Of a DNA stretch of 64,000 nucleotides, positions 10,949 to 51,832 are shown one piece after another. The DNA lies in NCBI GenBank assembly GCA_023459795.1, contig JAEWSP010000018.1, positions 30,946 to 94,945 on the forward strand. The letters run 5' to 3'. The DNA comes from Bacillota bacterium (GTDB taxonomy: Bacteria > Bacillota_I > Bacilli_A > RFN20 > CAG-288). Position 1 is the stretch's first letter; each line of letters begins with the position of its first letter. Made by a program: the position numbers and the translations under genes. The notes beneath the pieces were generated by a model. That model was not told the DNA's origin, ran no database searches, and saw only the letters and a list, made by a program, of their open reading frames with translations.

Positions 10949-10974
10949 AGAGAAGATCAGGGAAGAACAGCACC

Positions 10975-11006
10975 GGCCTTTTCCTATCCTGGGAAAAGGC
11001 CTTTTT
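10975..11006 (+). terminator. intrinsic terminator after trpS
   Basis: GGCCTTTTCC-tatcctg-GGAAAAGGCC followed by TTTTT. Confidence 0.8.
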
Positions 11007-11119
11007 CGTGTGTTCCGCTTTACTATCTTCCTCTCTTCCGTTATCCTTGAAGCAAAGCGGGCAAGGCTATTTTCTTCTTAATCCAGAAATAGGTTTTCTG
11101 CCGGAAGAAGGACCAAGCT

Positions 11120-12830
11120 ATGAACAAGAACAACGGGCGCCGTCTAATGGCCTTCCTCAACGACCATCTTGCCAAAGTAGGGAAAAAGTATCTCTCCGTC
11201 TTCGATGCCTTCGGAAAAGAGCCGGAGAGAATCAGCGAGAAGACGCTTCTTTCCATCGTGAAGAAGAACAGGAATACGGAATTCGGAAGGAAGCACCATC
11301 TCGACCAGATCCATTCCCTTTCCGACTACCGGAAGGAAGTCCCTGTTTCGGACTACGAAGACTATAGGGAAGCAATCCTTAGGATGCAGGACGGGGGAAA
11401 GGATGTCCTCTTCCAGGGAAAACCGGTCTACTATACGGATACTTCCGGATCGACGGGGAAGAGCAAACGGATTCCTATCTCTGCTACCCAGCAGAAGGCA
11501 ATGAAGAAGAAGAAAGGAAATCCTCAGATCATCCCCTATCTGGAGAAGAAGAACGGATGCTATGACAGGAACCACCGGAAGATCCTCGCCCTGATGGCGA
11601 ATGCCGACATCACCTATACGAAGGACCAAACCCCGATCGGGGATGTCGTCTCCCTGATGCTTTCCAAGGTCAGCGGATTGATGGGGCTCTTCTTTACCAC
11701 CCTTTGGCAAGCCTCACCTCGAACGAGATCCATGACCGCCTCTATGTCCACCTTCTCTTCGCGCTTCCGGAAACGGACATCTATCTCATCATGAGTGCCT
11801 ATCTCAGCGAAACCTGCGGAATGGTGAACTATCTCTTCCAGAACCAGGAACTCTGCTCCATGATCTTGCAGAAGGGAAAATATCGGACTGCGTAAAGCTT
11901 TCCCCCGCCCTAAAGAAGGAACTTGAAAAGAAGCTTGTCCCGCACCCGGAAAGGGCTGAGGAACTAAAAGAAATCCTGGCTTCCGGAAGAGACGGGATCC
12001 TGACCAGGATCTGGCCTAGCCTCACCGTCGTAAGCGGGGTCGGCAGTACAGAGAACAGGCTGCGCCCGTATACGCTTCTTGTAAAAAGGTATCTAGGAAG
12101 CAAAGGACATATTTATTATGCCGCCTATAATTCCTCGGAATCCTTGATGGGGCTGGCAACGGACTACGACACCTTCCTCTATGCACCGGTCCTGGATATG
12201 GCTTATCTGGAATTCCTTCCCCTCGATGAGAAGGAACAGCCGATCCCGGGGAAGATCCTTTCCGTATCCGAGCTTACGGACGGGGCAAAGTACGAGACTG
12301 TCCTGACCAGCCTCTCCGGTCTCTATCGTTATAGGATGGCAGACATCGTCAAGGTCAGCGGACGGAAAGGAAGGCTTCCTCTATTCGAAATCCTAGGACG
12401 GAACAAGGTCCTCCTCGATGTCATGGGAGAGAAATGCACCTTCCATCAGGCAGATGACGCGATTGCCCTCCTAGGAGAAAAGATCGGGGAGAAGGAACAT
12501 CCCATCTATGCCTACTGTGCCACGGAAGGGAATAAGGAAAACCGGTATACCTTCTTCCTGGAAATCAAGGATTCCTCTTCCCTGGATCCGAAGAAGACTT
12601 CTCTCCTTCTGAAGGATTCCCTAGCCCTTGCTTCCCCGGATATCCGGTATGCTTTCGAGGAGGAAGGGCTCCTTCCTCCCGAAGTCTTCTTCGTGAAGGA
12701 AGGGACTTTCCAAAAATACCTCCACAATGAGAACCGGGAAGGAGAAGAAACAAAGCACTCCATCAAGGAGATCAAAGTCCTGAGGACCGAAGAGCAGAAG
12801 AAGTTCTTCAGGGATCATATCGAAGGATAG
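11120..12830 (+). pseudogene. GH3-family (acyl-acid amido synthetase-like) gene interrupted by two -1 frameshifts
   Basis: The N-terminal part (11120-~11700) carries FGRKH...YRKEVPVSDYEDY...YTDTSGSTGKSKRIP. The GH3-like sequence continues in a second frame (~11700-11880) and a third frame (11880-12830). The three pieces together span about 570 codons. Confidence 0.7.
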
Positions 12831-12891
12831 GAAAAGAGGCGTCCCCTAGAGGATGCCTTTTTCTTGCCAATAAACAGTCTTCTCTTTTTTG

Positions 12892-13929
12892 TCAGTCTCT
12901 ATCCGGCAGTTTTCCCGGCGCTTTGGATATGCCTTCCAGATACGAGTCGAAGGACTCCTTCCTGAAAGCATCGATTGCAGCTTCCACTTCCGGGTCCAGA
13001 TCCTTTATCCGGCCTCTGCCGATTACAAGAGGATCGATATACCTCCTCTTGGAATAGACCTTGATCGTATGCTCCTTCTCCGTCTTTTGTTCTTTGACTT
13101 CGGTTAGGTTTGTGAACCATTCCCAGTTATTCTTTGTCTCTTGGTTACCTAGAATTTTCTTGATAACAACCTCTTCCGTAGAATAAAGGTCGTTTTCCGA
13201 AAGAACGGACAAGGAGAAAGCTCTCCTAATTCCTCTGGCCAGGGCCTCCATCCCGTACCTGTCTTCTGGAGTCACATATACTTTGGAGTTCTGTATGGTT
13301 GCAAGAGCAAACTTCCTGGCAAGCTCCTTAGAAGAAAAAGCAAGCTCTTCGACTCCGTCTTCGTTTACCGTAACGGAAAGATCCCGGTACATTGCTTCTA
13401 CTTCTTCTCTAGAGGCATGGGAATAGTTCAGGAAATTGGAGAGGGTGTATTCCAGCCTGTCGGCAGAAAGCCTGGGAGAATCGTTGTCTGCAATCGGATA
13501 GAGATGGTAGTTATCGACATCCTTGGTAGATAGTCCAAGCTTCATAAGCTCTTTCTGGATTACGGGATCTTCTTCGATGATGCAGGTTGTCCTCTCCTCC
13601 GTTGCTTCCTGGGTAAGGTAATCCCCTTTTACGAAGTCGACGACGTGGGCAAAGGCCGGGGTTGCTATATCATGGAACAGACCGGAAAGGCTCTCCTTCT
13701 GATTCTTCCGGAAGTGATAGACGATTAGAGCAACTCCTAGAGAGTGGACGAACCTGGAATAAGGTTCGAAATCCTTATAGAACGGGAAGGAGGTATATTC
13801 CATTCCGCAGTGCATCCCGACATGCTTTATCCGTTCCAGGGAAGGAGCAGGAAGGAAGCCTTCCAGAAAGGAAGGGATATCCTTGCTGTAAAGAGAAAAC
13901 AGGAACTGCTCTTTTTCTATGTGGGACAT
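12892..13929 (-). CDS. HD-domain phosphohydrolase family protein
   Basis: 345 aa with H...HD pattern (HSLGVALIV...LFHDIATPAFAH). Confidence 0.65.
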   Translation of the reverse strand: MSHIEKEQFLFSLYSKDIPSFLEGFLPAPSLERIKHVGMHCGMEYTSFPFYKDFEPYSRFVHSLGVALIVYHFRKNQKESLSGLFHDIATPAFAHVVDFVKGDYLTQEATEERTTCIIEEDPVIQKELMKLGLSTKDVDNYHLYPIADNDSPRLSADRLEYTLSNFLNYSHASREEVEAMYRDLSVTVNEDGVEELAFSSKELARKFALATIQNSKVYVTPEDRYGMEALARGIRRAFSLSVLSENDLYSTEEVVIKKILGNQETKNNWEWFTNLTEVKEQKTEKEHTIKVYSKRRYIDPLVIGRGRIKDLDPEVEAAIDAFRKESFDSYLEGISKAPGKLPDRD

Positions 13930-14017
13930 GTTTTTTCCTCTGTTAAAAGACCATTATAGCAAAGAAGAGCAACGGAAATGAGGTTGCCCTTGCCCCTCCC
14001 TTTTTGTATAATAGATT

Positions 14018-14100
14018 CACCATCGCGGTGTATACCGTCGAACTTGGTCAGGACCGGAAGGTAGCAGCCATAAGATCGGTGTCCACGTGCGGTGGCTTTT
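14018..14100 (+). ncRNA. ffs: small (4.5S-type) signal recognition particle RNA
   Basis: Conserved domain IV core GGTCAGGACCGGAAGGTAGCAGCC. The closing helix pairs CCATCGCG with CGTGCGGTGG. TATAAT lies at 14007-14012 and a T-run at 14097-14102. Confidence 0.8.
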
Positions 14101-14111
14101 TTATTAAAAGA

Positions 14112-14558
14112 ATGAATAAAGAAGACCTAGCTATAGCTTTATCGGAACTAGAGAAGGAGTCCTCTCTCCTGTTGCAGAAAGGAGAGGTTCCTGTTTCCGC
14201 AGTCCTTGTTCTTGAAGACGGGACAAGGATCGTTACCGGAAACAAAGTCGAAGAAAAGAACAACCCTTTTCTGCATGCCGAAATAGTTGCGCTCGAAGAA
14301 GGAATGAAGAAAACCGGGTCGAGGTATCTGAAGGGTGCCACCCTTCTTGTCTCTCTGGAACCCTGTCTTCTCTGCATGGGAGCAATCCTGAAAGCAGGGA
14401 TAGAGGATCTTTATTACTGCCAGGACGACAAGAAGAAAGGCGCTCTTTCCTACTACCATGTCTTTGTCGATGACGTACTCCGTGTCCACACCATAAAAGA
14501 CAGGGTCCTGGAAGACAACCTTAAAGCTGCTTTTGCATCGCTACGTAAGGACCAATAG
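14112..14558 (+). CDS. tadA: tRNA-specific adenosine deaminase
   Basis: CDA-fold zinc motifs HAE and PCLLC. The start is moved to Met37 of the listed ORF because the upstream part overlaps the SRP RNA. No clear SD sequence. Confidence 0.75.
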   Translation: MNKEDLAIALSELEKESSLLLQKGEVPVSAVLVLEDGTRIVTGNKVEEKNNPFLHAEIVALEEGMKKTGSRYLKGATLLVSLEPCLLCMGAILKAGIEDLYYCQDDKKKGALSYYHVFVDDVLRVHTIKDRVLEDNLKAAFASLRKDQ

Positions 14559-14575
14559 TCTTTTTCTATAAGTTT

Positions 14576-15262
14576 CTATTTCGTCTCGTCTTTCTTCTCT
14601 TCTTTTGTTTCTTTGATCTTTTTCAATGAATCTTCTGCTTTTCCTTCCGGGAAGATTGCCTTGAAGGCGAAGAAGAAGACAATAGTCGTGATTCCGGAGG
14701 TAGCAAAGGTCTGGCAGACCTGATAGAGAGTTCTGGACATGACTTCCGATGCCGGTTTCAGCCAGAGGGAGTTCAAGGCATTGGAAAGCAGCGTTACCAG
14801 GATATTGGCAAGCGTATAAAGCAGAACCTGGGGAAGAACCTTGCGGCGGGATTTATAGGTGATATTTCTTTGCAGAGGGAAATTGATTGCCTGGGTCGTG
14901 AAGTAGGTGATAAGCCAGCTGAAGAAATACCCTAAGCCTCCTCCGTAGATTACGTTTCCGGACTGATCCCTAAGGACATCATATCCGAGGATTGCCCAGA
15001 CAAAGCGTCCGTTTCCGTAGGGAAGCGTAATTCCGGGCCAAAGCCATTCCGTTCCGGCAAGCCGCATACCGAAAGCAAGCGGCAGGAAAGTATAGCCAAG
15101 ATACTGGAAAACAGTCAGGACCCATCCGATAAGGCCGAACTTGATGAACTGCCAGATTGTCTTGTTTAGATTCGGGTGGTGGAACGAGAAATGCTTCCAC
15201 CATTTTGGCGGAAGAAGCTTCTTTCGTTTTTCCGTCGGGTTGCTGTTCTCTTCCATAAGCAA
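14576..15262 (-). CDS. GtrA-like membrane protein
   Basis: 228 aa. Pattern FIKFGLIGWVLTV with about 4 TM segments. The C-terminal tail is Lys/Glu-rich. Confidence 0.5.
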   Translation of the reverse strand: MLMEENSNPTEKRKKLLPPKWWKHFSFHHPNLNKTIWQFIKFGLIGWVLTVFQYLGYTFLPLAFGMRLAGTEWLWPGITLPYGNGRFVWAILGYDVLRDQSGNVIYGGGLGYFFSWLITYFTTQAINFPLQRNITYKSRRKVLPQVLLYTLANILVTLLSNALNSLWLKPASEVMSRTLYQVCQTFATSGITTIVFFFAFKAIFPEGKAEDSLKKIKETKEEKKDETK

Positions 15263-15448
15263 GAAACATTATATAGTTTTTCCCTAGGTTTTGTAGGGAA
15301 AAGAAGATCCTTTGTGATAAACTTAATCCCGATATGAGAAAAATTTTTATTTCCTTCCTGTCATCGCATTCCTTTTCCGGCCTCTAGCGGGCTTTTTTGC
15401 TATAGACGGAAGATACGATCCATAAAACAGTAAAGGATAAACATTAAA

Positions 15449-16558
15449 ATGCCAGAAGATTATATGATGGCCCGTTTGAAGGCCATGAAGAAGAGACTAA
15501 CCGATATCGACGACCTCTTAAGCGGTGGTTCGATGGATGTTCCTACGATGACGAAGCTTAGCAAGGAACGTTCCGGCCTGGAAAAGCCGGTCGAGCTTTA
15601 TGACGAAGTAATGAAGATGGAGTCCGACAAAGCGGATGCCGAGGAGATGATGAAGGATCCGGATCCGGAGATCAAGGATCTGGGCAAATCCACTTTCGAT
15701 GAGATGGCCAAGAAGATCGATGCCATGGGAGAAGAGATCAAGCTCTCCCTGATTCCTAAGGATGCCAATGACGACAAGAACATCATCATGGAAATCCGCG
15801 GTGCAGCCGGAGGAGATGAAGCGAATATCTTCGCCGGAGATCTTTTCCGTATGTATTCCCATTATGCAGACAGGGAAGGCTGGAAGATCCAGCTTCTCGA
15901 CAGCGAGCCTACTCCGCTTGGCGGATTCTCCCTCGTTTCCTTCCGTATCAAGGGAAAGGGCGTCTACTCGAAGCTGAAGTTTGAAAGCGGCGCACACCGT
16001 GTCCAGCGTGTTCCGGTCACGGAAGCAAACGGCAGGATCCAGACATCGACGGCTACCGTCCTTGTCATGCCGGAAATCGAGCATGTCGACATCAAGATTA
16101 ACCCTGCCGATCTCCGTATCGATACCTACCATTCCTCGGGCGCCGGAGGACAGAACGTCAACAAGACGGAGTCTGCCGTCCGTATCACCCATATCCCGAC
16201 GAACATCGTTGTCTCCTGCCAGATCGAGCGGGATCAGCTTGCCAACAAGGAAACATGCATGCTGATGCTGAAGGCTAAACTCCAGGCTCAGCATGATGCC
16301 GAGATTGAAGAGAAGGTCGGAGGCGAAAGAAGACTGAAGATGGGAACCGGCGAGAGGAACGAAAGAATCCGCACCTACAACTATCCGCAGAACCGTGTAA
16401 CGGATCACCGGATCGGCTGGAGCACCCTGAATCTTCCCAAGTTCATGAACGGGGAACTGGATGACTGCATCTTTGCTTTAAACGAAGCCAACCAGAAGGA
16501 TCTTCTGGAAGAAGAGACGAAGAAGCTGAAGGCAGAGATGGAGCAGCAGGAAAAGTAG
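15449..16558 (+). CDS. prfA: peptide chain release factor 1
   Basis: GGQ motif (SGAGGQNVNKTESAVRITHIPT) and PxT-type tripeptide (PVT). Confidence 0.9.
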   Translation: MPEDYMMARLKAMKKRLTDIDDLLSGGSMDVPTMTKLSKERSGLEKPVELYDEVMKMESDKADAEEMMKDPDPEIKDLGKSTFDEMAKKIDAMGEEIKLSLIPKDANDDKNIIMEIRGAAGGDEANIFAGDLFRMYSHYADREGWKIQLLDSEPTPLGGFSLVSFRIKGKGVYSKLKFESGAHRVQRVPVTEANGRIQTSTATVLVMPEIEHVDIKINPADLRIDTYHSSGAGGQNVNKTESAVRITHIPTNIVVSCQIERDQLANKETCMLMLKAKLQAQHDAEIEEKVGGERRLKMGTGERNERIRTYNYPQNRVTDHRIGWSTLNLPKFMNGELDDCIFALNEANQKDLLEEETKKLKAEMEQQEK

Positions 16559-16602
16559 GAATCAGGCGGAATGGAAAACCATTCCGCCTTTTATCCAAAC
16601 AA

Positions 16603-17409
16603 ATGACAGCCGCCGAGGTCGCAGAACAATTATCGGAAGAGAACATTCCGCTTGCCGATATCCGGACTATCCTTTCCGGTGTCTTCTCTTTTCCTTTCGA
16701 CAGGCTCGGAATAGACGGGGACAAGGACATTGCCACCAAAGAGGAATACAAGCTTGTCCTTGCTAAGCTTAAGGGCGGCGTACCTCCCGTCTATCTTGCC
16801 GGATACGACATCATCCGGGGACTGAAGATCTACCTATCGGAAGATGTCCTTATCCCGAGGACGGAGACGATTTCTTTTCTATACGGAGATATCCAAGGGA
16901 ATTACGATTTTTCCAACAAGAAAGTCCTGGATCTATGCACAGGGAGCGGCATTATCGCCTTGTCGGTAAAAAAGCTTTTCCCTGCCAGTATTGTCACTGC
17001 AAGCGATATTTCTGATAAAGCATTAGCTCTTGCAAAGAAATCCGCAGAAGAGAACTCTCTTTTTATAGTTTTTAAGAAAAGCAACTTCTTAGAAGATATC
17101 CAGGATAGGTTTGATGTAATCCTCTCCAATCCTCCTTATATCGAAGAAAGAAGCAAGGATGTTATAGCCCCTTATGAGCCTCCTCTTGCTCTCTATAGCG
17201 GCAAGGACGGAATGGATAGCTACAGAGCTATCTTCTCCCTTCTGGACTCTAGGCTTCTTAAAAAAGGCATTGCTTTCTTCGAACTGGAAGCAAGCAATGC
17301 CGACAAGGTAAAAGACCTGTTCCTCTCCTTCTATCCGGAAGGATATGACTGTTCCTTTATCCTCGATATGGAGAACAAGAAAAGGTATCTTGTAGCCAAG
17401 AAGAGATAG
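16603..17409 (+). CDS. prmC: release factor glutamine N5-methyltransferase
   Basis: 268 aa. It has an NPPY motif and SAM-binding DLCTGSG, and lies directly downstream of prfA. Confidence 0.85.
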   Translation: MTAAEVAEQLSEENIPLADIRTILSGVFSFPFDRLGIDGDKDIATKEEYKLVLAKLKGGVPPVYLAGYDIIRGLKIYLSEDVLIPRTETISFLYGDIQGNYDFSNKKVLDLCTGSGIIALSVKKLFPASIVTASDISDKALALAKKSAEENSLFIVFKKSNFLEDIQDRFDVILSNPPYIEERSKDVIAPYEPPLALYSGKDGMDSYRAIFSLLDSRLLKKGIAFFELEASNADKVKDLFLSFYPEGYDCSFILDMENKKRYLVAKKR

Positions 17410-17410
17410 C

Positions 17411-18346
17411 TTATTTGCTGTCCGGCTTTGCTCCCATCCAGGTTCTCCCTTCCGTGATGAGCGTCGTCATCAAGGCGACGACATCAAAGAAGAGAAGCAG
17501 GATCAGGGCAACCGGTGTGATTTTCAGTTCCGAAGTGCAGAGCAAAGAGGTGAAGGTGAAGAAGATCAGATTGAAGTAATACAGGTATTTGTAGTCCCCC
17601 GGATAGAAGATGCTGAGGATTCCGCTGATGGTAATGAAGATCATTCCCATTAGCAGCGGGAAGTACATGGCCGTCGAGGAGACCGGATTGTATTTGGCTC
17701 CCAGATTCAGAAGATAGATGGCGGCGGTAACGAGATAGAAGACGAAGGAAAGAATACGGCAGATCCGGGAAAGCTTGATCCCGGATATGATCTTCATCCT
17801 CTTGTCTCCGCTTTCCTCGCTGATCTTCTCTACCCTCTTTTCGACGTCCTCGTTGATCTCCATGCCGTTCGTGACATTGAAGACCGTGTTTCCGTTTCCC
17901 TGCTCATCGAAGGCCGTCCTTCCCTTCTGGAACCTCTGGTAGTAGAGAAGAAAGAAAACCAGGTTCAGGGCAAAGCCGAAAAGGCAGAGGGAGAACTCCG
18001 TCCAGTAGATAGCCCCTAGATCCAAGGTACTGTCCAACGAGGAGATAGGTGTAACCAGGAAGTCTTCCCTGTAGAAGAGAAGGGCAAGAAGAGTTTCCAG
18101 GAAATAGAAGACGGCTGTCTTTATCGGTTTGTAGAGGGTAAAGAGCCCTGTCCCGATGACGATACCCAGGATCATCAGGCTAGGCATGACATTCTTCATC
18201 GTCGAATAGTCGTGGGTGTTATAGAGGATCAAAGACGGAACCACGACAAAGAAGACCTGGGAGAGGAAGACCATAATCCGGTTGTAGATATCGACCCTGG
18301 AAAGAAAGGATGCCAGAGTCTTGAAACGGGCTCGGATTTGTTTCAT
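17411..18346 (-). CDS. hypothetical polytopic membrane protein
   Basis: 311 aa with 8 or more hydrophobic segments; no motif recognised. Confidence 0.5.
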   Translation of the reverse strand: MKQIRARFKTLASFLSRVDIYNRIMVFLSQVFFVVVPSLILYNTHDYSTMKNVMPSLMILGIVIGTGLFTLYKPIKTAVFYFLETLLALLFYREDFLVTPISSLDSTLDLGAIYWTEFSLCLFGFALNLVFFLLYYQRFQKGRTAFDEQGNGNTVFNVTNGMEINEDVEKRVEKISEESGDKRMKIISGIKLSRICRILSFVFYLVTAAIYLLNLGAKYNPVSSTAMYFPLLMGMIFITISGILSIFYPGDYKYLYYFNLIFFTFTSLLCTSELKITPVALILLLFFDVVALMTTLITEGRTWMGAKPDSK

Positions 18347-39483: not shown

Positions 39484-39559
39484 GGATCTTTAGCTCAGTT
39501 GGTAGAGCAACTGACCCTTAATCAGTGGGCCAAGGGTTCGAGTCCCTTAAGATCCACCA
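39484..39559 (+). tRNA. tRNA-Lys (anticodon CTT) with encoded CCA
   Basis: Hand-folded cloverleaf. Acceptor GGATCTT/AAGATCC, D arm GCTC/GAGC, anticodon stem ACTGA/TCAGT with loop CCCTTAA, T arm AAGGG-TTCGAGT-CCCTT, discriminator A. Confidence 0.85.
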
Positions 39560-41816: not shown

Positions 41817-42348
41817 GAAGAAGTACTGCTATGTCTGCGAAGGCAAGACAGACGAAGACAGGCTGAAGAAAGCCGGTTGTCTGTTTGTCGTTGTCTCCGG
41901 CGGAAAATTCATCCGCCCGGAGATTTTGTCCTTCCTGTCTCTGGTCTCCAAGAAGCGGAATATAGTTCTTGTCACGGATCCGGATACACCCGGAGATATG
42001 ATCCGGAAGAAGATTGAATCCGTTGTCGGCCCATGCATTAATCTTCACGGGAAGAAGGAACAGGCAACTTATAACGGAAAGCTTGGGATTGCAGAGATGA
42101 GGCAGACCTCTGTAGATGCTCTCCTTGCTTCTTGCATAGAGCATGACAAAGCCATTGAGGAAGAGAGCGGATTCAGCCATGACGACTACCTGGATATGGG
42201 ACTAGAAGGTCTGGGAAGCAAGGAGAGAAGAGAAAGACTTATCAAGAAGTACAGCCTACCTCTTGCTTCCGGTAAGAGCGTCGAAGAAGAATGCCATATC
42301 CTTTCCTTGACCAAGGAAGAGATAAAGGAGGCAATTGCACATGAGTGA
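41806..42348 (+). CDS. rnmV: ribonuclease M5
   Basis: Toprim pattern VCEGKTD...VTDPDTPGDMIRKKI. Its position between tatD and rsmA matches Bacillus. Confidence 0.8.
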   Translation: MDYEKKYCYVCEGKTDEDRLKKAGCLFVVVSGGKFIRPEILSFLSLVSKKRNIVLVTDPDTPGDMIRKKIESVVGPCINLHGKKEQATYNGKLGIAEMRQTSVDALLASCIEHDKAIEEESGFSHDDYLDMGLEGLGSKERRERLIKKYSLPLASGKSVEEECHILSLTKEEIKEAIAHE

Positions 42349-43159
42349 GCAGGATAGAATCCAAGGACTGTTGAAGGAATACGGCTATATCGCCAAGAAG
42401 TCCTTCGGACAGAATTTCCTTATCAACGAAGGAATCATAAGAAGAATCGTCGACCAGATGAAGCCGGAGACTTTCGAGACCGTAATCGAGATCGGTCCTG
42501 GCCTTGGAGCACTGACTCTTCCTCTTTCCCAGAAGAGCAAAAAGCTTTATGCCGTCGATGCAGACAGGGATATGATCACTATCCTCCATGAGATCTTCGA
42601 TTCCAAGAAGAATGTCACCTTGGTCCAGTCCGATTTCCTCCGCTTCGATCCGGACTCTGTCTCCCGGAAGGAAGATAGGCTGCTCATTGGGAACCTTCCT
42701 TACAACATCACTTCCGAGCTTTTTGAATATATGCTTGAAAAAGGGTTTGCTTCTGCCGGTGCCATGGTCCAGAAGGAAGTCTATGAGAAGCTAAGCTATA
42801 CCCCGGGGAAGTCAACCAACACTGCTCTAGGAGCTTTTATCGAAAGCATGGGAAAGCTCTCCCTGCTGACACTTGTCGACCACTCCTCCTTCGATCCTTC
42901 CCCGAAGGTGGAGTCCGCCTTCGTAAGGATTGATACGGATCCGAAGAAGTCGATTTCCTTCTCCCTCTATCCTGTCTATAAGGCACTCTTCCGGAATCCG
43001 AACAAGACCATCCACAACTGCCTCAAGGAGGTGCCGGAATATAGGGACTCCCTTCCTACGCTAAGCCAGGAAAAGCCGGAGCTTCTTTCTTCCAGGGCAC
43101 GGCAACTGGACGTGAAGACACTGCAAAAACTAGCCGAAGAAATCCAGAAGCTTTCCTAG
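42335..43159 (+). CDS. rsmA: 16S rRNA (adenine1518/1519-N6)-dimethyltransferase
   Basis: KKSFGQNFL motif, SAM-binding EIGPGLGALT, and NLPYNI. Confidence 0.9.
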   Translation: MHMSEQDRIQGLLKEYGYIAKKSFGQNFLINEGIIRRIVDQMKPETFETVIEIGPGLGALTLPLSQKSKKLYAVDADRDMITILHEIFDSKKNVTLVQSDFLRFDPDSVSRKEDRLLIGNLPYNITSELFEYMLEKGFASAGAMVQKEVYEKLSYTPGKSTNTALGAFIESMGKLSLLTLVDHSSFDPSPKVESAFVRIDTDPKKSISFSLYPVYKALFRNPNKTIHNCLKEVPEYRDSLPTLSQEKPELLSSRARQLDVKTLQKLAEEIQKLS

Positions 43160-43364
43160 AACTGTTTTTAGGCGCCAAAGGGAATTAATTTTACCGAAAA
43201 AACCAGTTTCAAAACATTTCCTAACCCTTGGGGATGGTTACTACAGCAAAACAGGGTTGCCTTTGTCGGGAATGACTCTACCCAGTTCGCTTTAAATAAG
43301 CTTGAGTAGCCCATTCCATCTTCGGAAATATGTAGATGATTATACTACTCACCTACCAAGAAAA

Positions 43365-44255
43365 CTAATTAAGGAACTTTTCGCAGTTAAATATATTTTC
43401 TTCATAACTTTGTGTTAACCGGTCTTTCATCTCACCCTCTGTAACTTTTCCGTATTTTCTTTCATAAAGAGAAATTATAGAGGTCATTATTGGAGCGGAG
43501 AAACTTGTCCCACTCTTTTCATTAATAACGATTCCATTCTCACATTCGTCTAAACAGATTATATCTAAGCAGGGTAAAAGAAAACAAGAGGAGTTAAAGT
43601 TTGCTTTTTTCCAAACGTTACATTCCTTATCTATTCCTGAAACAGCAATGACATTTCCATACGCGGCCGGGTACAACAAACTATCTGTTCCGGAATTTCC
43701 GGAACTGGCAACAACAATAATTCCTTTGCTTATGCATCTATCGATGGCAGCCCTAATCAAGCCGGAATCGTTCTTTATTCCTAAAGAAATATTGACTATA
43801 TCAATGCCATATTCACAACAACAATACAATGCGGATTCAACTTCTTGAATAGAGGCAATATTATCTTTACCCTCAACATCAAAAATGTAGATATCAGAAC
43901 AACAAGCCAAACCCAAATTATTGTATTCGGAGCAACCAATTATTGAAAATGTACTTAATCCGTGACTGGAATGTTGCTTACGCTCAACAGTGTTGTTAAA
44001 AACAATGTTTTGATTATGATAAACCGAGTTTTGAATTCCGGAATCTAGGACAGCAATTTTCGGAAAATACACAGCTTTTTCGTTACCTTTGGATAAGTTT
44101 ATTTCTTGCAAATAGTAGGCATTGTAGGGGATACTATTACGGTTTTTTGTTAAGCAGAAAAAGAAAGTACAAAAAACAAGCAGACCGGTTACAAGCTTAT
44201 GCCTTCGCATCTTTTTGATTTTCCGGACCCTGCTTTGCCTTATACGCTTGGACAA
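43365..44255 (-). CDS. membrane-anchored subtilisin-like serine protease (peptidase S8), Cys-rich
   Basis: Catalytic triad contexts AVLDSG (Asp), HGLSTFS (His) and SGTSFSAP (Ser). It has an N-terminal basic stretch plus a TM anchor. Local GC is low. Confidence 0.75.
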   Translation of the reverse strand: MSKRIRQSRVRKIKKMRRHKLVTGLLVFCTFFFCLTKNRNSIPYNAYYLQEINLSKGNEKAVYFPKIAVLDSGIQNSVYHNQNIVFNNTVERKQHSSHGLSTFSIIGCSEYNNLGLACCSDIYIFDVEGKDNIASIQEVESALYCCCEYGIDIVNISLGIKNDSGLIRAAIDRCISKGIIVVASSGNSGTDSLLYPAAYGNVIAVSGIDKECNVWKKANFNSSCFLLPCLDIICLDECENGIVINEKSGTSFSAPIMTSIISLYERKYGKVTEGEMKDRLTQSYEENIFNCEKFLN

Positions 44256-44697
44256 ACTTCTTCTTTTTCCGGTATTCGAAAAGAAGAATGATAAAGATAG
44301 CTAATACCGATACGATTTCGACGATATAGCCGGTAACGGAAGAAACGAAGAAGTAGACAAGAGTAAAACTAATCCCTGCCACTACAAAGAAAAAACTGAA
44401 AAGAACGAATCCGTTATTAAAAAGATTCGGATAAGAAAAACTCAGATGGGCATCCTTATTGGATATTTCTTTTGTCGGATACTTTTCTTCTTCTGGCTTC
44501 CCTTTGGAAAAGAAACCAAGTTCAAAGAAGAAGTCTTCATAGCCATAACCAAGAAAGGCAGGAAGGCATAGAATCAGGCTTTTTCCAAAGTACTCCAAAG
44601 ATAAGAACTTTGTGTTTTCCAAGGTAAAACCGTAAACGAGGATTGCCAGGACTACGAATATAGGAGTACAAATCAAACGAAGTTGCCATTTTTTCAT
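44197..44697 (-). CDS. hypothetical 4-TM membrane protein
   Basis: The start is probably MKKWQLRL. It overlaps both neighbouring genes, suggesting coupled translation. Low GC. Confidence 0.5.
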   Translation of the reverse strand: MKKWQLRLICTPIFVVLAILVYGFTLENTKFLSLEYFGKSLILCLPAFLGYGYEDFFFELGFFSKGKPEEEKYPTKEISNKDAHLSFSYPNLFNNGFVLFSFFFVVAGISFTLVYFFVSSVTGYIVEIVSVLAIFIILLFEYRKKKKFVQAYKAKQGPENQKDAKA

Positions 44698-44699
44698 TT

Positions 44700-45530
44700 T
44701 TATTGAAGTCCAAACGCAAACTGACGTTCCCACGAAAATGAGATTGAAATACCATCTTTAATAAAATGAGAATAGATATAGTCGAAAAGCTCAGATAAAC
44801 AAACAGAGACAAAAAAATTCACAACAAACCTTACTAATGCATGTTCGGATAAAACAGAGATAGCAGAAACGACAGCCAAAATGACAGGATTACCAGTAAC
44901 AGCTCCAAAAAGAGCTAAACTAGCCGCCATAACAATAGGCGTTCTGGTTGCCATAAACAATGCCGTAATTCCTTCAACAATAAACCCTGTCCCATAAGAG
45001 AGAATTTTTCTACAGGTGGAGGCATCAATCTTGAAAACAAATTGATCCGGAACATAAATTCCCCACCAAAGTTTTTTCCAAGTTAAATTGAAGGAATTTT
45101 CCCCTTCGCTTTCTTCTTCAAAACCAGAATACTTAATTAGTGCCGATTCATAGGCATCGATGATTGTGTTTTCTCCAACAAGTTCTGCTTCTTCAGCAGA
45201 AAGCCGGTTTTCCAAAGAAGCAATAACGTTTCTAGAAACATCCAAGAAATAGTTGGATCCTTTTTCATCACATTCAGCAAAGACATTATCCAAACTATTC
45301 TTTGCCTTGGAAATGTTAGATAAGATTTCCTTTCTTGACGCAGGTACTTCAATATCACTAATAGAAAGGTTGGAATAGCAGTCTTCAATTTTATCAAGTT
45401 GGTCCTGAACCTCTTCTTCTTTGGCTGAATTTATTCCAACATTAGTTGGACCTTTGGAATTCTTTCCAAAACATAAAAAACTACTCAATACAGTTATGAT
45501 AGTCAATGCTTTTTTTAATGGCACTTGCAT
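44700..45530 (-). CDS. hypothetical secreted/membrane protein: signal peptide, helical acidic ectodomain, Gly/Ala-rich C-terminal TM helices
   Basis: The start is probably MQVPLKKALTIITVL. The C-terminus reads GITALFMATRTPIVMAASLALFGAVTGNPVILAVVSAISVL. Low GC. Confidence 0.5.
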   Translation of the reverse strand: MQVPLKKALTIITVLSSFLCFGKNSKGPTNVGINSAKEEEVQDQLDKIEDCYSNLSISDIEVPASRKEILSNISKAKNSLDNVFAECDEKGSNYFLDVSRNVIASLENRLSAEEAELVGENTIIDAYESALIKYSGFEEESEGENSFNLTWKKLWWGIYVPDQFVFKIDASTCRKILSYGTGFIVEGITALFMATRTPIVMAASLALFGAVTGNPVILAVVSAISVLSEHALVRFVVNFFVSVCLSELFDYIYSHFIKDGISISFSWERQFAFGLQ

Positions 45531-45979
45531 ATTTTTTGCCTCGTTGATAATCATAGTGTGTAGATAACTTAAAGTCAATATCGTGTTTTTTGATTACACC
45601 ACTTTTTTGTTCTTGTTATAAATTGTTTTCTAACACAACTGTTTTTTTATAAGAATCGTCTTTGCTTTGTGTTGCACCATGAGAGCAATTGTAAAGCTCC
45701 TCTTTTGGCTTCAAATGCTTTTCTGAGTTTTGCCCCCAAGAAATTTTGCGGTCTGAAAAGAAGCATATGCTGAACATTTTTCGTCAAAAGCTCTAGACAA
45801 AAACAGATTTGCTTTGGAAAGGGCATTCCGCGAACCATTTTCAAAAAGCAACGTCAATTCCAAAACTTAGATGCCAAAAACTTTCTAAGCTCGTCTTCTA
45901 ATTGCTTCTAATTCATTTGAACGCTTTTGCAACCGCCCCTTCATAAACAACCATTTCCGCTCTTTCCAGTAGCTGCGGC

Positions 45980-46885
45980 TTATTCTTCTTTCTTGTTGTT
46001 CTTCTCTGTTTCTTTTTCTTCTTTCTTCTCCTGCTTATGCTTCTGATGCTCTTTGTAGAAATCCTGATCGATCCAGAGGATCCGTTCCGAGAACTCCGGA
46101 TATTTCTTGAATACGAAATAGCTGGAGAGGATGCCGAGAAGCGCACCGCAGGCATCGGCAATGATGTCTCCGTCCGTATCCGTAACAGCATACCTATAGC
46201 CTGTAAATGTCTTGTAGTAATTCGTCATATCCGTCTCGCTGAGGTGGCAGTTCCCCGTATTCCACATCTCTCCGTTTGCTCCCCCGAGAATCCCCGTATC
46301 CTGATCGATGCAGGCATAAAGATCGTCCGGAATATATTTCTGCATGTTCGTATGGAAGATCAGGTCTGCTCCGCCTTCATACAGTTCCCACAAGGCTTCG
46401 ACGGCAACTCCGAAGAAGAAGCCGAAGAGAAGGCATAAGCCGGTCGCTTGTCTTCCTGTATATCCGTTCTTCTTCATGAGAAGCTTCATCAAGACAAAGC
46501 CTGCCAGGGCAAGCTGTGCCGTTCCTATCGTATGGAGGAATTTATCGAATCCGTAATCCCCGAGGTTGTAGTAGACCTGGCAGGCTTCTCCGAGGAAGAC
46601 GGAGACGAAGAGGTCAAAGGCGATGAACAGATCCACTGGCTTTCCGACACGGAAACCAGTCAGATGTTCGACAATCATCGGTCCCCAGATACCTAGGAAT
46701 GCGCAGGAAGACCCGACGATAACCGTCCTTGCCTGGACCGGATCCCACTGGAAAGGACGATGGGTAGCAATGCCGCCTTCCGGATAGAACGGCCTTACCT
46801 TGCAAAGGGATAGGATTGCAAAGACCATGAGCATGGAGAAAACAGAGGTTTCAATGATATACAGGGTCTTTCGGTAAGATGCCAT
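45980..46885 (-). CDS. hypothetical polytopic membrane protein with Lys/Glu-rich tail
   Basis: 301 aa with about 6 TM segments; GC is back at core level. Confidence 0.5.
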   Translation of the reverse strand: MASYRKTLYIIETSVFSMLMVFAILSLCKVRPFYPEGGIATHRPFQWDPVQARTVIVGSSCAFLGIWGPMIVEHLTGFRVGKPVDLFIAFDLFVSVFLGEACQVYYNLGDYGFDKFLHTIGTAQLALAGFVLMKLLMKKNGYTGRQATGLCLLFGFFFGVAVEALWELYEGGADLIFHTNMQKYIPDDLYACIDQDTGILGGANGEMWNTGNCHLSETDMTNYYKTFTGYRYAVTDTDGDIIADACGALLGILSSYFVFKKYPEFSERILWIDQDFYKEHQKHKQEKKEEKETEKNNKKEE

Positions 46886-47019
46886 ACGCCGCTCCTTTAA
46901 TACTTCTTATTTTAGCGAAAAAAACAGGAATTGGAACCACGATTAGCGGAAAGAGAGTAAGAAAGAAAAAGAGGAAATGAAAAAGGCCCGTTTCCGGGCC
47001 TTTGTGTTGGTTTCTAAAC

Positions 47020-47994
47020 CTACTTGACGTACTTGGAGATAATATCGGAGACAGACTTGTTGTTGCTGATGGCATCGATGCAGGCAGCAATGGTCGGAGC
47101 AAGGGAGACAACCGTGATGTTGAGATCCTTGTTCTTCTTGAACCGTTCATCCAGCGGGATGGAGTCCGTGACCCAGAGACGATCGAACGGGCAGGCGCTG
47201 AGACGGGTATAGGCAGGATCGGAAAGGACAGGGTGGACAACAGCCATCATGACCTTCTTGGCACCGAACTTCTTAAGAGCGGCACCGGCAGCAATCGCAG
47301 AACCGGCAGTATCGATCATATCGTCGACGATCAGGCAATCCTTATCCTTGACGTCTCCGACAATGTTCATGACTTCCGGCTGACGGGAGCTGTTACGTCT
47401 CTTATCGATGATGGCAATCGGAGCATCCAGGATCTCCGCAAAGTTGCGGGCGCGGACGACTCCGCCATGATCCGGCGAGACAACGACAAGGTTGGCCTTG
47501 TCGACGCTTTCGTCATGCTTGACGGTATAGCCGAGAAGCGGAACGGCAGTAATGTCATCTTCAAGGCAGGAGAAGAAAGCCTGCTCCTGGGCTGCATGAA
47601 GATTGAAGGTGAGGATACGATCGGCACCGGCAGTGACATAAAGATCAGCAACGAGCTTACTGGAAATCGGCTCACGCGGCTTGGACTTTCTATCCTGACG
47701 GGCATATCCGAAGTAAGGAATGATGACGTTGATTTCGCTGGCAGATGCTCTCTTGAGAGCATCAATGAAGACCAAAGTCTCCATAATATTTTCATTGACC
47801 GGCGGGCAGGTAGATTCGATGATAAATACCCTCTTGCCCCGGACACAGGTCTCTGGGCAGGCCATCACTTCTTTGGACGGAAATACTTCCAGATGTACCT
47901 TCCCTAATGTCGTCCCCAGCTCCTTCGCAACGGCTTCGGCCAGATCGACGTTGGCGCTTAACGCATAGAGAATGGCATCATTACCAAAATTCAT
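47020..47994 (-). CDS. prs: ribose-phosphate pyrophosphokinase
   Basis: YFGYARQDRK and PRPP-binding DCLIVDDMIDTAGS. Confidence 0.93.
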   Translation of the reverse strand: MNFGNDAILYALSANVDLAEAVAKELGTTLGKVHLEVFPSKEVMACPETCVRGKRVFIIESTCPPVNENIMETLVFIDALKRASASEINVIIPYFGYARQDRKSKPREPISSKLVADLYVTAGADRILTFNLHAAQEQAFFSCLEDDITAVPLLGYTVKHDESVDKANLVVVSPDHGGVVRARNFAEILDAPIAIIDKRRNSSRQPEVMNIVGDVKDKDCLIVDDMIDTAGSAIAAGAALKKFGAKKVMMAVVHPVLSDPAYTRLSACPFDRLWVTDSIPLDERFKKNKDLNITVVSLAPTIAACIDAISNNKSVSDIISKYVK

Positions 47995-48225
47995 ATCGAA
48001 AGGTTCCCCCTAACGGAATTATTCTAACACTCTTAGAGTTGGTTTCTAAGACTAATCCGCAAAAGGAGGGAAGCAATCGCTTTCTTTTCCCAAGGGACTT
48101 GAAAGGCAGCTTTTCAGGGAAATAGAATCCGGATCCAGGGGAAGAGAAAAAAGAGGCTTAACAGCAAGAAAATATCTGTTTTGATTTTTGAAAAACGAAA
48201 AACAGCCTCCCTTAGGAGGCTGTGC

Positions 48226-48879
48226 TTAATTCAGCTTGTTTTCTTTTTGAAGGATAGGAAGGATATCGGAAATGCCGACAAGCGGGTAATCTGTCTGATA
48301 GTAGGATGCTGCTTCTTTTACTCCGGCAGTCTTATACCCGCCTTCCTTGGCGGCTTTGATAGCAGAGAACCCATCCTCGACGACCAGGATATCCTTCGGA
48401 GAGAGGACAAGAGCCTTGGCAATCTTGTCGAAGATAACGGAATCATGTCTTGCGACATCAACGTCGTTTCCGTCGACGACCACATCGAAGACATGTTCCA
48501 TCTTGATCTTGGAAAGAATGGTTTCGCAGTTCGTAGATGCTGTTCCGATAGCTACCTTGATTCCGTTCTTCTTCAAAAGCTCAATGGTGGAACGGACTTC
48601 TTCCGGACAGTCCATCTCGGTGAGCTGGGTAAGAAAATTCTGGTAGATAGCATTCTTTTTGTCGGAAATGGCAATTTTCTCTTCTTCCGTGTAGTTCTTG
48701 TTGGCACGCTTTGCCATCAAGGCGACACAGTCCATGCGGTTGGTTCCCCGCATCTGATTATAAACGGAACGGTCAAAAGGGATTCCTTCCTCCTCGGCTA
48801 CGGATTTCCAGGAACGATAATGGTATTCGTCAGTATCGGCAATTACACCATCGATATTAAAAATAACCGCTTGGATCAT
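48226..48879 (-). CDS. beta-phosphoglucomutase-like HAD protein with Asn in place of the nucleophilic Asp
   Basis: 217 aa, alignable by eye to beta-PGM (VIF-N-I-D-GVIADT..YH..W). Motif I reads NIDG instead of DxDG. Confidence 0.65.
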   Translation of the reverse strand: MIQAVIFNIDGVIADTDEYHYRSWKSVAEEEGIPFDRSVYNQMRGTNRMDCVALMAKRANKNYTEEEKIAISDKKNAIYQNFLTQLTEMDCPEEVRSTIELLKKNGIKVAIGTASTNCETILSKIKMEHVFDVVVDGNDVDVARHDSVIFDKIAKALVLSPKDILVVEDGFSAIKAAKEGGYKTAGVKEAASYYQTDYPLVGISDILPILQKENKLN

Positions 48880-48961
48880 ACCCGATTCCTCCTTCTGAGG
48901 ACCTCAAATTGAGCGACAAATAGATATTTTATCAAGCAAATTGTTGCAACTCAACTTATGT

Positions 48962-49846
48962 TTACTTAACCCAATCCGTAGCAAACTGGGTGAGATAAGC
49001 AAGATTTCCGTCTTTGGAGAAGTTATGCAAAGCATGCTCCAGAAGCTTTTTATCCGTGCTTAAGGCAAAGCAGGCACTTCCGGACCCGGACATTCCGCAA
49101 AGGGGAAGCCCCATCTCCTTCATCTGATCCAATATTTTCTGGATGAGAGGAAGTGCTTTAATTGCCGGGATGGCAAGAACATTGACAAGGTTCTTTTCGA
49201 TAAGGGACTCGTCTCCCTTCTTCAGTCCTTCGATAAGCTGCGCGATATCCGGATGCCGGACAGTGGCAGGATCAACAAGGTCGTATGCCTGATAGACGCT
49301 CTTGGTAGAGAGTCCGTACGGAGGTTTCACGATAAGGACATAATACAGGGTCTTCACGGAAATCGGAGAAAGCACTTCTCCGACTCCTCCAACCCGGGAA
49401 GGGAGATTGCGGAAGCAGTAAGGAACGTCCGCACCGACAGAAAGAGCAAGCTTGTTGATTTCCTCCTTGCTGCTAGCAGACTTCGGGAAGGCAGGCTCAA
49501 AAGCCCGGAAGATTGCAGCCGCGTCTGCACTTCCTCCGCCAAGTCCGGCTTCCACCGGAATCTTCTTATAAATAAAAATCTTGAACCTTCCGGTGTCGCT
49601 GCAATGTTTCTTCATGACATCGAGTGCCTTGTAGGCAAGGTTCGATTCATCGCAGACAATGCTAGGATCGTCACAGTAAAGATAAGTATCCTGGGTCTCT
49701 CCCGGGATCCTGGAAATTTCAATCGAATCATGGAGCTTGAGAGGAATCGTCACCATATCGATGTTGTGGTATCCATCTTCTCTCTTGCCTAGAACGTCCA
49801 GCGCTAAGTTAATCTTTGCTAAGGCACGAATCACTAGGGTATTCAT
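48962..49846 (-). CDS. ispE: 4-diphosphocytidyl-2-C-methyl-D-erythritol kinase
   Basis: The start is set at MNTLVIRALAKINLALDV. GHMP kinase motif PVEAGLGGGSADAAA. Confidence 0.88.
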   Translation of the reverse strand: MNTLVIRALAKINLALDVLGKREDGYHNIDMVTIPLKLHDSIEISRIPGETQDTYLYCDDPSIVCDESNLAYKALDVMKKHCSDTGRFKIFIYKKIPVEAGLGGGSADAAAIFRAFEPAFPKSASSKEEINKLALSVGADVPYCFRNLPSRVGGVGEVLSPISVKTLYYVLIVKPPYGLSTKSVYQAYDLVDPATVRHPDIAQLIEGLKKGDESLIEKNLVNVLAIPAIKALPLIQKILDQMKEMGLPLCGMSGSGSACFALSTDKKLLEHALHNFSKDGNLAYLTQFATDWVK

Positions 49847-49953
49847 AGATTTATGTCCTTTTCGGGTTTTCAGCGTACCTATTATAACTTTTTTCTTTCT
49901 TGGTAAGTAGAGTACAAGAAACAAGAAAGAAAATAGTTATAATAAAAGGGACC

Positions 49954-51181: not shown

Positions 51182-51832
51182 TTATTTTTCTTTTGTTTTC
51201 AGTTCATCAGGAATCGGAACGGATGTCGTCCCCACTTCATCGATTGACCAGCGAGTTTCCCAATTAAAATAATCATTTTTGCTCGTCGAACTCCATAGGA
51301 TTTCTTTAATTTCCCCGTCCTCGGCATAATAAGAATACGTCTGCGAGTAATCCTTCCCTTCAAAATAGATTCCGGTATAACACTTGTTCTTGCTGTTGTA
51401 GGAAAGCTTGGAATAATCCAAGAACCAATCCATCTTTGCTCCATTGTAAGGCATACTCACAATACACCAGCCATATCCATTTTTTGAGCAGTAATACACA
51501 CGAGAACCTTGGACCTGAGAATTAGGTTCTTCATTCGGATTTGGCAGCCAAGATATGCAGGAACATGCCTCAGGATTATCCGGTTCTACATCATTCGTAT
51601 AGGAATAATACTGGTTTACGTAATCATATTGGTACAATTCCGGGAATTCAGGATTCGGAGTACGGACTCCATCTTCCACTCCGATATTGTCAGCAAACAC
51701 CCTGCTTAAGGTAAAAGAGGATTTGGTCAGCTCTCCAACAGAGGAATCATATTCCTCTTTGCTAAGCTTTGTAGAGTTCTTTGAACAGCCCGGAAGAAAG
51801 GAAGCACAAAAGGTAAGAAAGAGAATCTGCAT
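51182..51832 (-). CDS. putative lipoprotein, function unknown
   Basis: Signal peptide with lipobox FLPGC; Tyr/Trp-rich. Confidence 0.55.
   Translation of the reverse strand: MQILFLTFCASFLPGCSKNSTKLSKEEYDSSVGELTKSSFTLSRVFADNIGVEDGVRTPNPEFPELYQYDYVNQYYSYTNDVEPDNPEACSCISWLPNPNEEPNSQVQGSRVYYCSKNGYGWCIVSMPYNGAKMDWFLDYSKLSYNSKNKCYTGIYFEGKDYSQTYSYYAEDGEIKEILWSSTSKNDYFNWETRWSIDEVGTTSVPIPDELKTKEK

Follow-up and report, generated by a model that had tools for sequence, protein, structure and literature searches.

Gene content of the locus

We analysed a 64,000-nucleotide (nt) stretch of the genome of an uncultured species of Bacilli (contig JAEWSP010000018.1, positions 30,946 to 94,945), hereafter referred to as the window and numbered from its first letter. 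The subject of this work is a segment of low guanine-plus-cytosine (GC) content at 43160-45979, between rsmA and the ispE-prs gene block, which carries three genes: one for a protein of 276 amino acids (aa), ORF276, one for a 166-aa membrane protein, TM166, and one for a subtilisin-like (S8) serine peptidase. The species is distantly related to Candidatus Enterosoma. The segment is probably a foreign, lower-GC operon of 2.8 kb which an ancestor of the species acquired and which has become fixed; it is located at the junction of an inversion. The genes and features of the locus are as follows (GC3 stands for the GC content at third codon positions).

42341-43159, + strand: rsmA (ksgA), PF00398, closes the conserved mnmE-tatD-rnmV-rsmA block and flanks the segment on the left; GC3 0.63
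43160-43364: spacer A, convergent intergenic region from the rsmA stop to the S8 stop, at the edge of the low-GC island; GC 0.395
43365-44210, − strand: S8 (subtilisin-family) serine peptidase, 281 aa, PF00082, third gene of the predicted operon
44197-44697, − strand: TM166, 166-aa polytopic membrane protein as judged from hydropathy, second gene
44700-45530, − strand: ORF276 (called as 276 or 284 aa), first gene
45531-45979: spacer B, low-GC non-coding DNA from the DUF2238 stop to the ORF276 start; GC 0.369
45550-45578, − strand: putative sigma-70-like promoter TTGACT-17-TATGAT, 10/12 consensus match
45980-49846, − strand: DUF2238 membrane protein, prs, HAD hydrolase and ispE (Pfam labels), right flank; GC3 0.54-0.62

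While rsmA is encoded on the + strand, S8, TM166, ORF276, DUF2238, prs, HAD and ispE are all encoded on the − strand. TM166 starts 2 nt past the stop of ORF276, and the ATG of S8 overlaps the 3' end of TM166 by 14 nt; gene junctions of +2 and −14 nt indicate that the three genes form a single operon, which seems to have a promoter-like site of its own. This site, the best such match in the region, is followed by a ribosome-binding site (GAGG) and by the ATG at 45530. As a match to the consensus it is considered here a putative promoter; a sister lineage about 95.5% identical to the window retains a 9/12 match, TTTACT-17-TATTAT, at the same position (contig L020). The longest versions of the ORF276 and RsmA open reading frames (ORFs) gave no exact-sequence match, the real starts being internal, and the called 284-/276-aa versions were matched.

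Nucleotide composition and codon usage

In sliding windows of 400 nt, GC content is 0.33-0.39 across approximately 43.2-46.0 kb, compared with 0.47-0.53 in rsmA and DUF2238/prs, and the three 1-kb bins of 43-46 kb form the lowest GC run of the entire window. Taken as a whole, 43160-45980 has a GC content of 0.363; all the rest of the 2.8-kb windows together have a mean of 0.482 (standard deviation 0.025), giving z = −4.8. The edges of the segment coincide with the stop codons of rsmA (43159) and DUF2238 (45980), and the low GC extends to both spacers (0.395 in A and 0.369 in B).

Codon usage gave the same picture. GC3 is 0.33 in S8, 0.41 in TM166 and 0.29 in ORF276, the three lowest values among the 57 long ORFs of the window; the other 54 have a mean of 0.596 (standard deviation 0.072), which places the island genes at z = −2.6 to −4.3. 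Amino-acid composition does not account for the drop, as the GC3 of native membrane proteins (DUF2238, ABC transporters) is 0.53-0.61. A sequence-only reading, made from spot counts, had placed a low-GC island directly after rsmA, and both the sliding-window GC and the codon usage bear this out: the difference is clear, and the segment is foreign at the codon level. Its composition and codon usage are those of a horizontally acquired genomic island.

Synteny at the rsmA junction

The order mnmE-tatD-rnmV-rsmA, followed by ispE and then prs, lies on one strand in three distant Bacillota loci (L004-L006), in line with the Bacillus subtilis order given in the sequence-only reading, and this codirectional order is taken as ancestral. 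The window has the block ispE-HAD-prs-DUF2238 in the opposite orientation, running towards rsmA, and the island occupies precisely the point where the two meet. Given the codirectional order in L004-L006, the inversion reading holds, and the strands confirm that ispE and prs are turned relative to rsmA with the switch at the island.

Relatives similar to Enterosoma, whose RsmA is 58-64% identical, share the same upstream block and have different contents after rsmA (positions 10800-17500 of their loci): in L001 these are uvrB and a gene for an S41 peptidase, in both L002 and L003 genes for a GH2 glycosidase and an Ig-like surface protein. Comparison of the rsmA-to-prs interval, as proposed in the sequence-only reading, showed the cargo of the island next to rsmA in none of the relatives recovered, those with RsmA at 58-64% identity being rearranged at this site and too distant to count as close relatives with an empty site. 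This variation in gene content marks the 3' end of rsmA as a recurrent breakpoint in the clade. The present map may result either from a single inversion in which the island was already at the end of the inverted segment or from a later insertion into a convergent junction. Of the earlier proposal of a horizontal insertion tied to an inversion, both the foreign segment and the inversion stand; the data leave a joint event undecided, a causal link and a coincidence at a recurrent breakpoint being equally possible.

At the far end of the inverted ispE...prs block, between the divergent ispE and orf187-TPK operon, there is a 23-nt inverted repeat (49880-49902 / 49922-49944) with 96% complementarity and a 19-nt loop, which could be an operator or a relic of rearrangement.

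Conservation, age and selection

The same arrangement, with ispE-HAD-prs-DUF2238 and ORF276-TM166-S8 converging on rsmA, was found in about 20 metagenome contigs from independent samples, including those of the sister lineage (L020-L022), and the island is present in all of these conspecific or sister-lineage contigs. Between the two lineages, the island has a nucleotide identity of 95-97% and a synonymous divergence (dS) of 0.08-0.13, and the flanking core genes have 96-97% and 0.10-0.17, respectively. All three reading frames are intact. The ratio of non-synonymous to synonymous divergence (dN/dS) is 0.24 for TM166, 0.25 for S8 and 0.34 for ORF276, against 0.05-0.18 in the flanks. Since the island has diverged as much as its flanks and its frames are intact, its acquisition would be older than the split of the lineages, and the island would be fixed; in the contigs sampled it appears neither recent nor strain-variable. 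The ratios point to purifying but relaxed selection, under which the island seems to be selectively maintained.

Spacers

Spacer A, known from the sequence-only reading as an ORF-free stretch of about 200 nt after rsmA, measures 205 nt and contains only a trivial ORF of 48 aa. No terminator-like site was found in it, its RNA fold is no better than that of shuffled sequences (z = −0.93), and it is 95% identical in the sister lineage. An Rfam search at E ≤ 1 across 42.9-46.3 kb gave no match.

Spacer B (about 450 nt) has only short overlapping ORFs. Among them are the two peptides that had been quoted earlier as ORF fragments at 45580-45980 and as possible debris of a transposase or regulator. 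The peptides are indeed there; their interpretation as debris is not supported, as the ORFs have no match in Pfam, NCBIfam or PHROG and no conserved frame. The same three collections revealed no remnants of insertion sequences or integrases among the spacer ORFs, and a six-frame tblastn of the spacer with the TetR genes that flank homologous modules in other lineages found no similarity. Spacer B differs from that of the sister lineage by substitutions (7%) and by four indels that shift the frame; the two lineages have no conserved ORF in common, and an 80-aa gene called in the spacer of the sister lineage is a chimera of three frames of the window. The divergence is close to the synonymous rate of the neighbouring genes, which suggests neutral evolution, and spacer B is best described as apparently non-coding DNA that evolves about neutrally, not as identifiable gene debris. 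Only the promoter-like site next to ORF276 keeps a match in both lineages.

A T7 tract on the + strand (A7 on the gene strand) occurs at 45642-45648, about 110 nt upstream of the ORF276 start, and reads as A5, A6 or A7 in otherwise identical contigs of different samples; the length differences may be an assembly artefact or genuine variation.

Origin of the island

The acquisition is deduced from composition and phyletic pattern, and several observations weigh against it. The relatives recovered include no closer one in which the site is empty; searches with Pfam, NCBIfam and PHROG detected no integrase or transposase, and neither attachment (att)-like repeats nor an adjacent tRNA gene were present. 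Repeats of the kind that had been envisaged as traces of an insertion did not emerge: direct or inverted repeats bracketing the island or the inverted block are at chance level only (≤14 nt). The nearest tRNA gene, tRNA-Lys(CTT) at 39484-39559 (+), directly precedes mnmE at a distance of 3.6 kb from the island and is not its integration site. Classical genomic islands and integrative elements resemble this segment in the sharp compositional break, the accessory cargo and the position at a synteny breakpoint; they differ from it by their integrases, transposases, flanking repeats or adjacent tRNA genes, none of which accompany the island, and the island is invariant among the strains sampled.

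We considered whether the segment could instead be native and lineage-specific, its weakly expressed accessory genes and unusually long intergenic region having become GC-poor through relaxed selection or a mutational bias towards AT. The lack of mobility signatures, a divergence equal to that of the flanks and a dN/dS above that of core genes would all suit such an origin. Yet the GC3 of the island genes is 0.2-0.3 below that of every other gene in the 64 kb, including poorly conserved ones, and dS is not raised, giving no sign of a different local mutation regime. Homologues are confined to organisms of lower GC, and none of the relatives recovered carries the genes beside rsmA. We regard a native origin as very unlikely. 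Less probable still, to the point of being hardly credible, is the idea, implied by the sequence-only reading, that a mobile element inserted recently and that the fragments at 45.58-45.98 kb are the decayed remains of its transposase, integrase or regulator: the long tract of non-coding, low-GC DNA at one of the island's edges and the variable-length poly-A tract within spacer B might recall such an element, but the spacer ORFs match no Pfam, NCBIfam or PHROG family and show no TetR similarity in six frames, terminal repeats are missing, and the island is shared with, and equally diverged in, the sister lineage.

As a genome feature, the acquired segment would be ordinary: a small islet gained long ago by horizontal transfer, in an uncultured lineage of Bacilli and at a junction prone to rearrangement. 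Its cargo belongs to an uncharacterised protein family which merits modest interest for follow-up.

Products of the three genes

ORF276 is predicted to consist of a Sec-type signal peptide, an acidic helical N-terminal domain (residues ~23-136, isoelectric point 4.4) and a conserved C-terminal domain (137-276). The latter comprises, in this order, a β-hairpin, a long helix, a short hydrophobic helical hairpin (198-227, with the turn TGNP), a second long helix and a second β-hairpin. The AlphaFold2 model of this domain is of moderate quality (predicted local distance difference test, pLDDT, 66; predicted template modelling score, pTM, 0.44), and in it the two short hydrophobic helices are joined by the invariant turn TG(N/S)P. 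These helices are short (13-16 residues) with moderate Kyte-Doolittle (KD) hydropathy of 1.8-1.9, as compared with 2.3-2.6 in TM166. The hairpin is thus predicted from hydropathy and the moderate model, and the signal peptides of the family from the n/h/c pattern in members with a complete predicted N-terminus. No sequence match to ORF276 was found in Pfam, NCBIfam, PHROG, PADLOC or PDB, and fold searches with the model were uninformative, returning generic helical bundles only.

TM166 has an N-terminal transmembrane helix followed by two to three C-terminal ones and a basic KKKK tail, with hydropathy peaks of 2.3-2.6. Scans with Pfam, PADLOC, NCBIfam and PHROG assigned it to no family.

The third protein belongs to the S8 (subtilase) family of peptidases. 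It matches PF00082 over residues 66-284 (E 1.3e-23; 84.1 bits against a cut-off of 21.8), and phmmer aligned it to mature residues 26-250 of subtilisin BPN' (3e-19). The catalytic positions are intact and in canonical order: D56, H82 (in the motif SSHG), N172, the oxyanion-hole Asn, and S236, with the motifs VLDSGI, SSHGLS, SSGNSG and SGTSFSAP aligning with D32, H64, N155 and S221 of BPN'; all of these residues are kept in the sister lineage. The catalytic domain is preceded by a hydrophobic N-terminus of only about 25 residues (a signal or an anchor), which leaves no room for an I9 prodomain. Among NCBIfam equivalogs, all scores were under the cut-offs (QhpE 79.7 < 165; mycosin 70.4 < 278.75; PatA 56.9 < 421.05). 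The peptidase also contains 15 cysteines (5.3%), including CC and CCC runs, which is unusual for a subtilase catalytic domain; all 15 are present in the sister-lineage sequence.

Outside its own cluster, the S8 peptidase has relatives of 25-37% identity, the closest (33%) being in Bacillus benzoevorans (L030, 6001-8258). That protein is likewise without a prodomain and is followed by a 259-aa protein with a signal peptide or transmembrane segment and by a 173-aa soluble protein, neither of which has a Pfam match. The cluster has 30% GC and is situated near IS21/Mu-type transposition genes. Comparison ruled out the 259-aa and 173-aa proteins as members of the ORF276 or TM166 families. The cluster may be another cassette of a protease plus an exported protein, which is suggestive but anecdotal.

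Distribution of the ORF276 family

A word-indexed search of 5.8e9 proteins returned only the own 90% cluster of ORF276. By exhaustive HMMER search over 1.84e9 representatives, four distant relatives with 31-35% identity were identified, and a profile search widened the family to eight clusters, some of which hold tens to hundreds of member sequences. Contigs with these relatives have 29-45% GC, compared with 48% in the host, and the source assemblies of several bear a gut-metagenome label; the occurrence of the relatives in lower-GC organisms fits a lower-GC donor. No homologues of ORF276 were detected in plasmids or phages (tblastn) or in IMG/VR (pattern scan).

Contexts of the gene pair were derived from loci L023, L025, L026, L028 and L032-L038. 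In every locus with downstream sequence, the ORF276 homologue is directly followed by a gene for a polytopic membrane protein of 125-158 aa. Among these partner proteins, mutual homology was detected for three (E 1e-19 to 1e-6); TM166 and two further partners correspond to them by position and architecture only. The remaining neighbours vary, with mutually homologous TetR-family regulators in three lineages, an acyltransferase and a surface protein with helix-turn-helix/leucine-rich repeats among them. Truncated variants of 142-189 aa recur in two of the clusters. ORF276 and its small polytopic partner thus make up a conserved two-gene module which has no relative in Pfam, NCBIfam, PADLOC, PHROG or PDB and which is confined to a handful of uncultured low-GC lineages of Bacilli, several of them from gut-metagenome assemblies.

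One 5'-truncated ORF276-family gene (L026/L027, 5300-8900) is located directly downstream of Drt4 (PADLOC E 3e-215), in a defence island with Hachiman and an EcoRII-type restriction-modification system. The reverse transcriptase of L026 was also considered as part of a group II intron, which was rejected: it is Drt4.

Possible function

The layout of the module resembles that of bacteriocin-like pairs, as in every complete locus a gene for a predicted exported protein precedes one for a polytopic protein of 125-166 aa. By analogy, we tentatively suggest, as a possibility that is far from assured, that ORF276 is a secreted membrane-active toxin, TM166 its immunity protein and S8 an activating protease. 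ORF276 would be exported by Sec. Its C-terminal domain, in which the two long amphipathic helices enclose the short hydrophobic hairpin, could enter the membrane of a target; such shielding of a hydrophobic hairpin by amphipathic helices is how proteins that start out soluble and become membrane-inserted are built. TM166 would be the cognate, membrane-embedded protector, a fast-evolving polytopic protein encoded next to the toxin being the usual form of immunity. Finally, the prodomain-less S8 peptidase, exported or anchored and found in this lineage only, would cut off the acidic N-terminal domain of ORF276 outside the cell and so activate it.

On a wider scale, ORF276 and its approximately eight clusters might, with similar reserve, be regarded as a family of bacteriocin-like toxins that has so far gone undescribed: exported by Sec and inserting into membranes, these toxins of low-GC Bacilli, many of them from gut metagenomes, would each be paired with a fast-evolving polytopic immunity protein, joined here by a prodomain-less subtilase as extracellular activator. 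If true, this would be a new antagonism module for hard-to-culture gut Bacilli, and a minimal subtilase would have been co-opted as a processing enzyme.

Similarities to known systems are those of layout. Pore-forming colicins (colicin A/Cai, colicin E1/Cei) are likewise exported proteins with a variable N-terminal part and a conserved helical C-terminal domain that buries a hydrophobic hairpin, and the next gene encodes a small, quickly diverging membrane protein with three to four transmembrane segments. Unlike in colicins, no sequence or fold similarity was found, the Pfam colicin pore-forming families included, and thus no colicin-type pore-forming domain; the C-terminal domain of ORF276 is much smaller, with four helices and two β-hairpins, its export would be by Sec in an organism of Gram-positive type, and lysis or translocation genes are missing. 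The sdpABC-sdpRI system of Bacillus subtilis also combines a Sec-exported toxin precursor, a polytopic immunity protein and an adjacent small repressor, the latter seen in relatives of the island, but there is no homology, and the repressor of those relatives is of TetR and not ArsR type and is absent from the window.

Activators of subtilisin type (LanP/NisP of lantibiotics, CylA of the enterococcal cytolysin) offer a parallel for the peptidase, being S8 enzymes; as in their case, the S8 protein of the island is predicted to be extracytoplasmic and shares an operon with an exported toxin-like precursor and an immunity-like membrane protein. In contrast to those systems, the island encodes no lanthipeptide precursor or modification enzymes, and its peptidase has 281 aa and no prodomain. 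A literature search on subtilase-activated bacteriocins gave nothing specific. QhpE, mycosin and PatA share the compact S8 domain and are the top-scoring NCBIfam profiles (1.8e-22, 1.5e-19 and 1.6e-15, respectively), but the scores are far under the cut-offs, and no genes for quinohemoprotein amine dehydrogenase, ESX/type VII secretion or cyanobactins are nearby.

A number of findings weigh against a toxin-immunity function. No homology or fold match to known families of toxins, pore-formers or immunity proteins was found, and the similarity of TM166 to a profile of the partner proteins from other lineages was not significant. For ORF276, structure prediction gave a C-terminal domain of only moderate confidence (pLDDT 66) and did poorly on the full-length protein (41.5). 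Three related lineages have a TetR regulator next to the pair, a setting more characteristic of genes for membrane or efflux stress than of bacteriocin genes. No other ORF276 locus recovered has the S8 peptidase, so this enzyme is not an obligatory component and would be a lineage-specific addition.

Some of these findings suit another explanation, an envelope or stress module, in which ORF276 would reside in the surface or membrane of the producer itself with TM166 as its partner, S8 would mature it or turn it over, and expression would, in the relatives, be switched through TetR by a membrane-active compound. In its favour, three lineages have mutually homologous TetR-family genes beside the pair, ORF276 could be truly anchored in the membrane by its hydrophobic segments, and no toxin homology was found. 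On the other hand, the hydrophobic helices of ORF276, at 13-16 residues and KD 1.8-1.9, fall short of those of TM166 (2.3-2.6), and the module is patchy, repeatedly truncated (142-189 aa) and located in variable regions, more like dispensable conflict genes. We consider this explanation unlikely, and the toxin-immunity reading somewhat less so.

More doubtful again is an anti-phage cassette, with the subtilase as sensor or activator and membrane-disrupting effectors causing abortive infection, along the lines of defence systems that contain a subtilase: it could appeal to weak PADLOC matches of S8 ('subtilase' 8e-07 and, partial, IetS 1e-05) and to the ORF276-family copy in the defence island with Hachiman, EcoRII restriction-modification and Drt4, but that copy is a 5'-truncated remnant, the Sec-type signal peptides predicted for the ORF276 family and S8 place them outside the cytoplasm, ORF276 and the partner proteins have no PADLOC match, and homologues are missing from phage, IMG/VR and plasmid collections. 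With an NCBIfam score for IteS of 11.9 against a cut-off of 900 and no IetA-like ATPase in the operon, the island does not appear to belong to the IetAS / IteS anti-phage systems.

Other features of the region

Two further observations were made outside the island. In L020 (8876-10350), mnmE is split into calls of 145 and 349 aa, while the gene is intact in the near-identical L021; only one JGI assembly is concerned, and the split is probably a frameshift or an assembly error. A 216-aa ORF at 51182-51832 (−), with GC3 of 0.43 and no Pfam match, is full length in the window and in L008; in L007, L009 and L014, which are samples of the same species, the calls cover only 90 or 105 aa, suggesting a variable or decaying gene.

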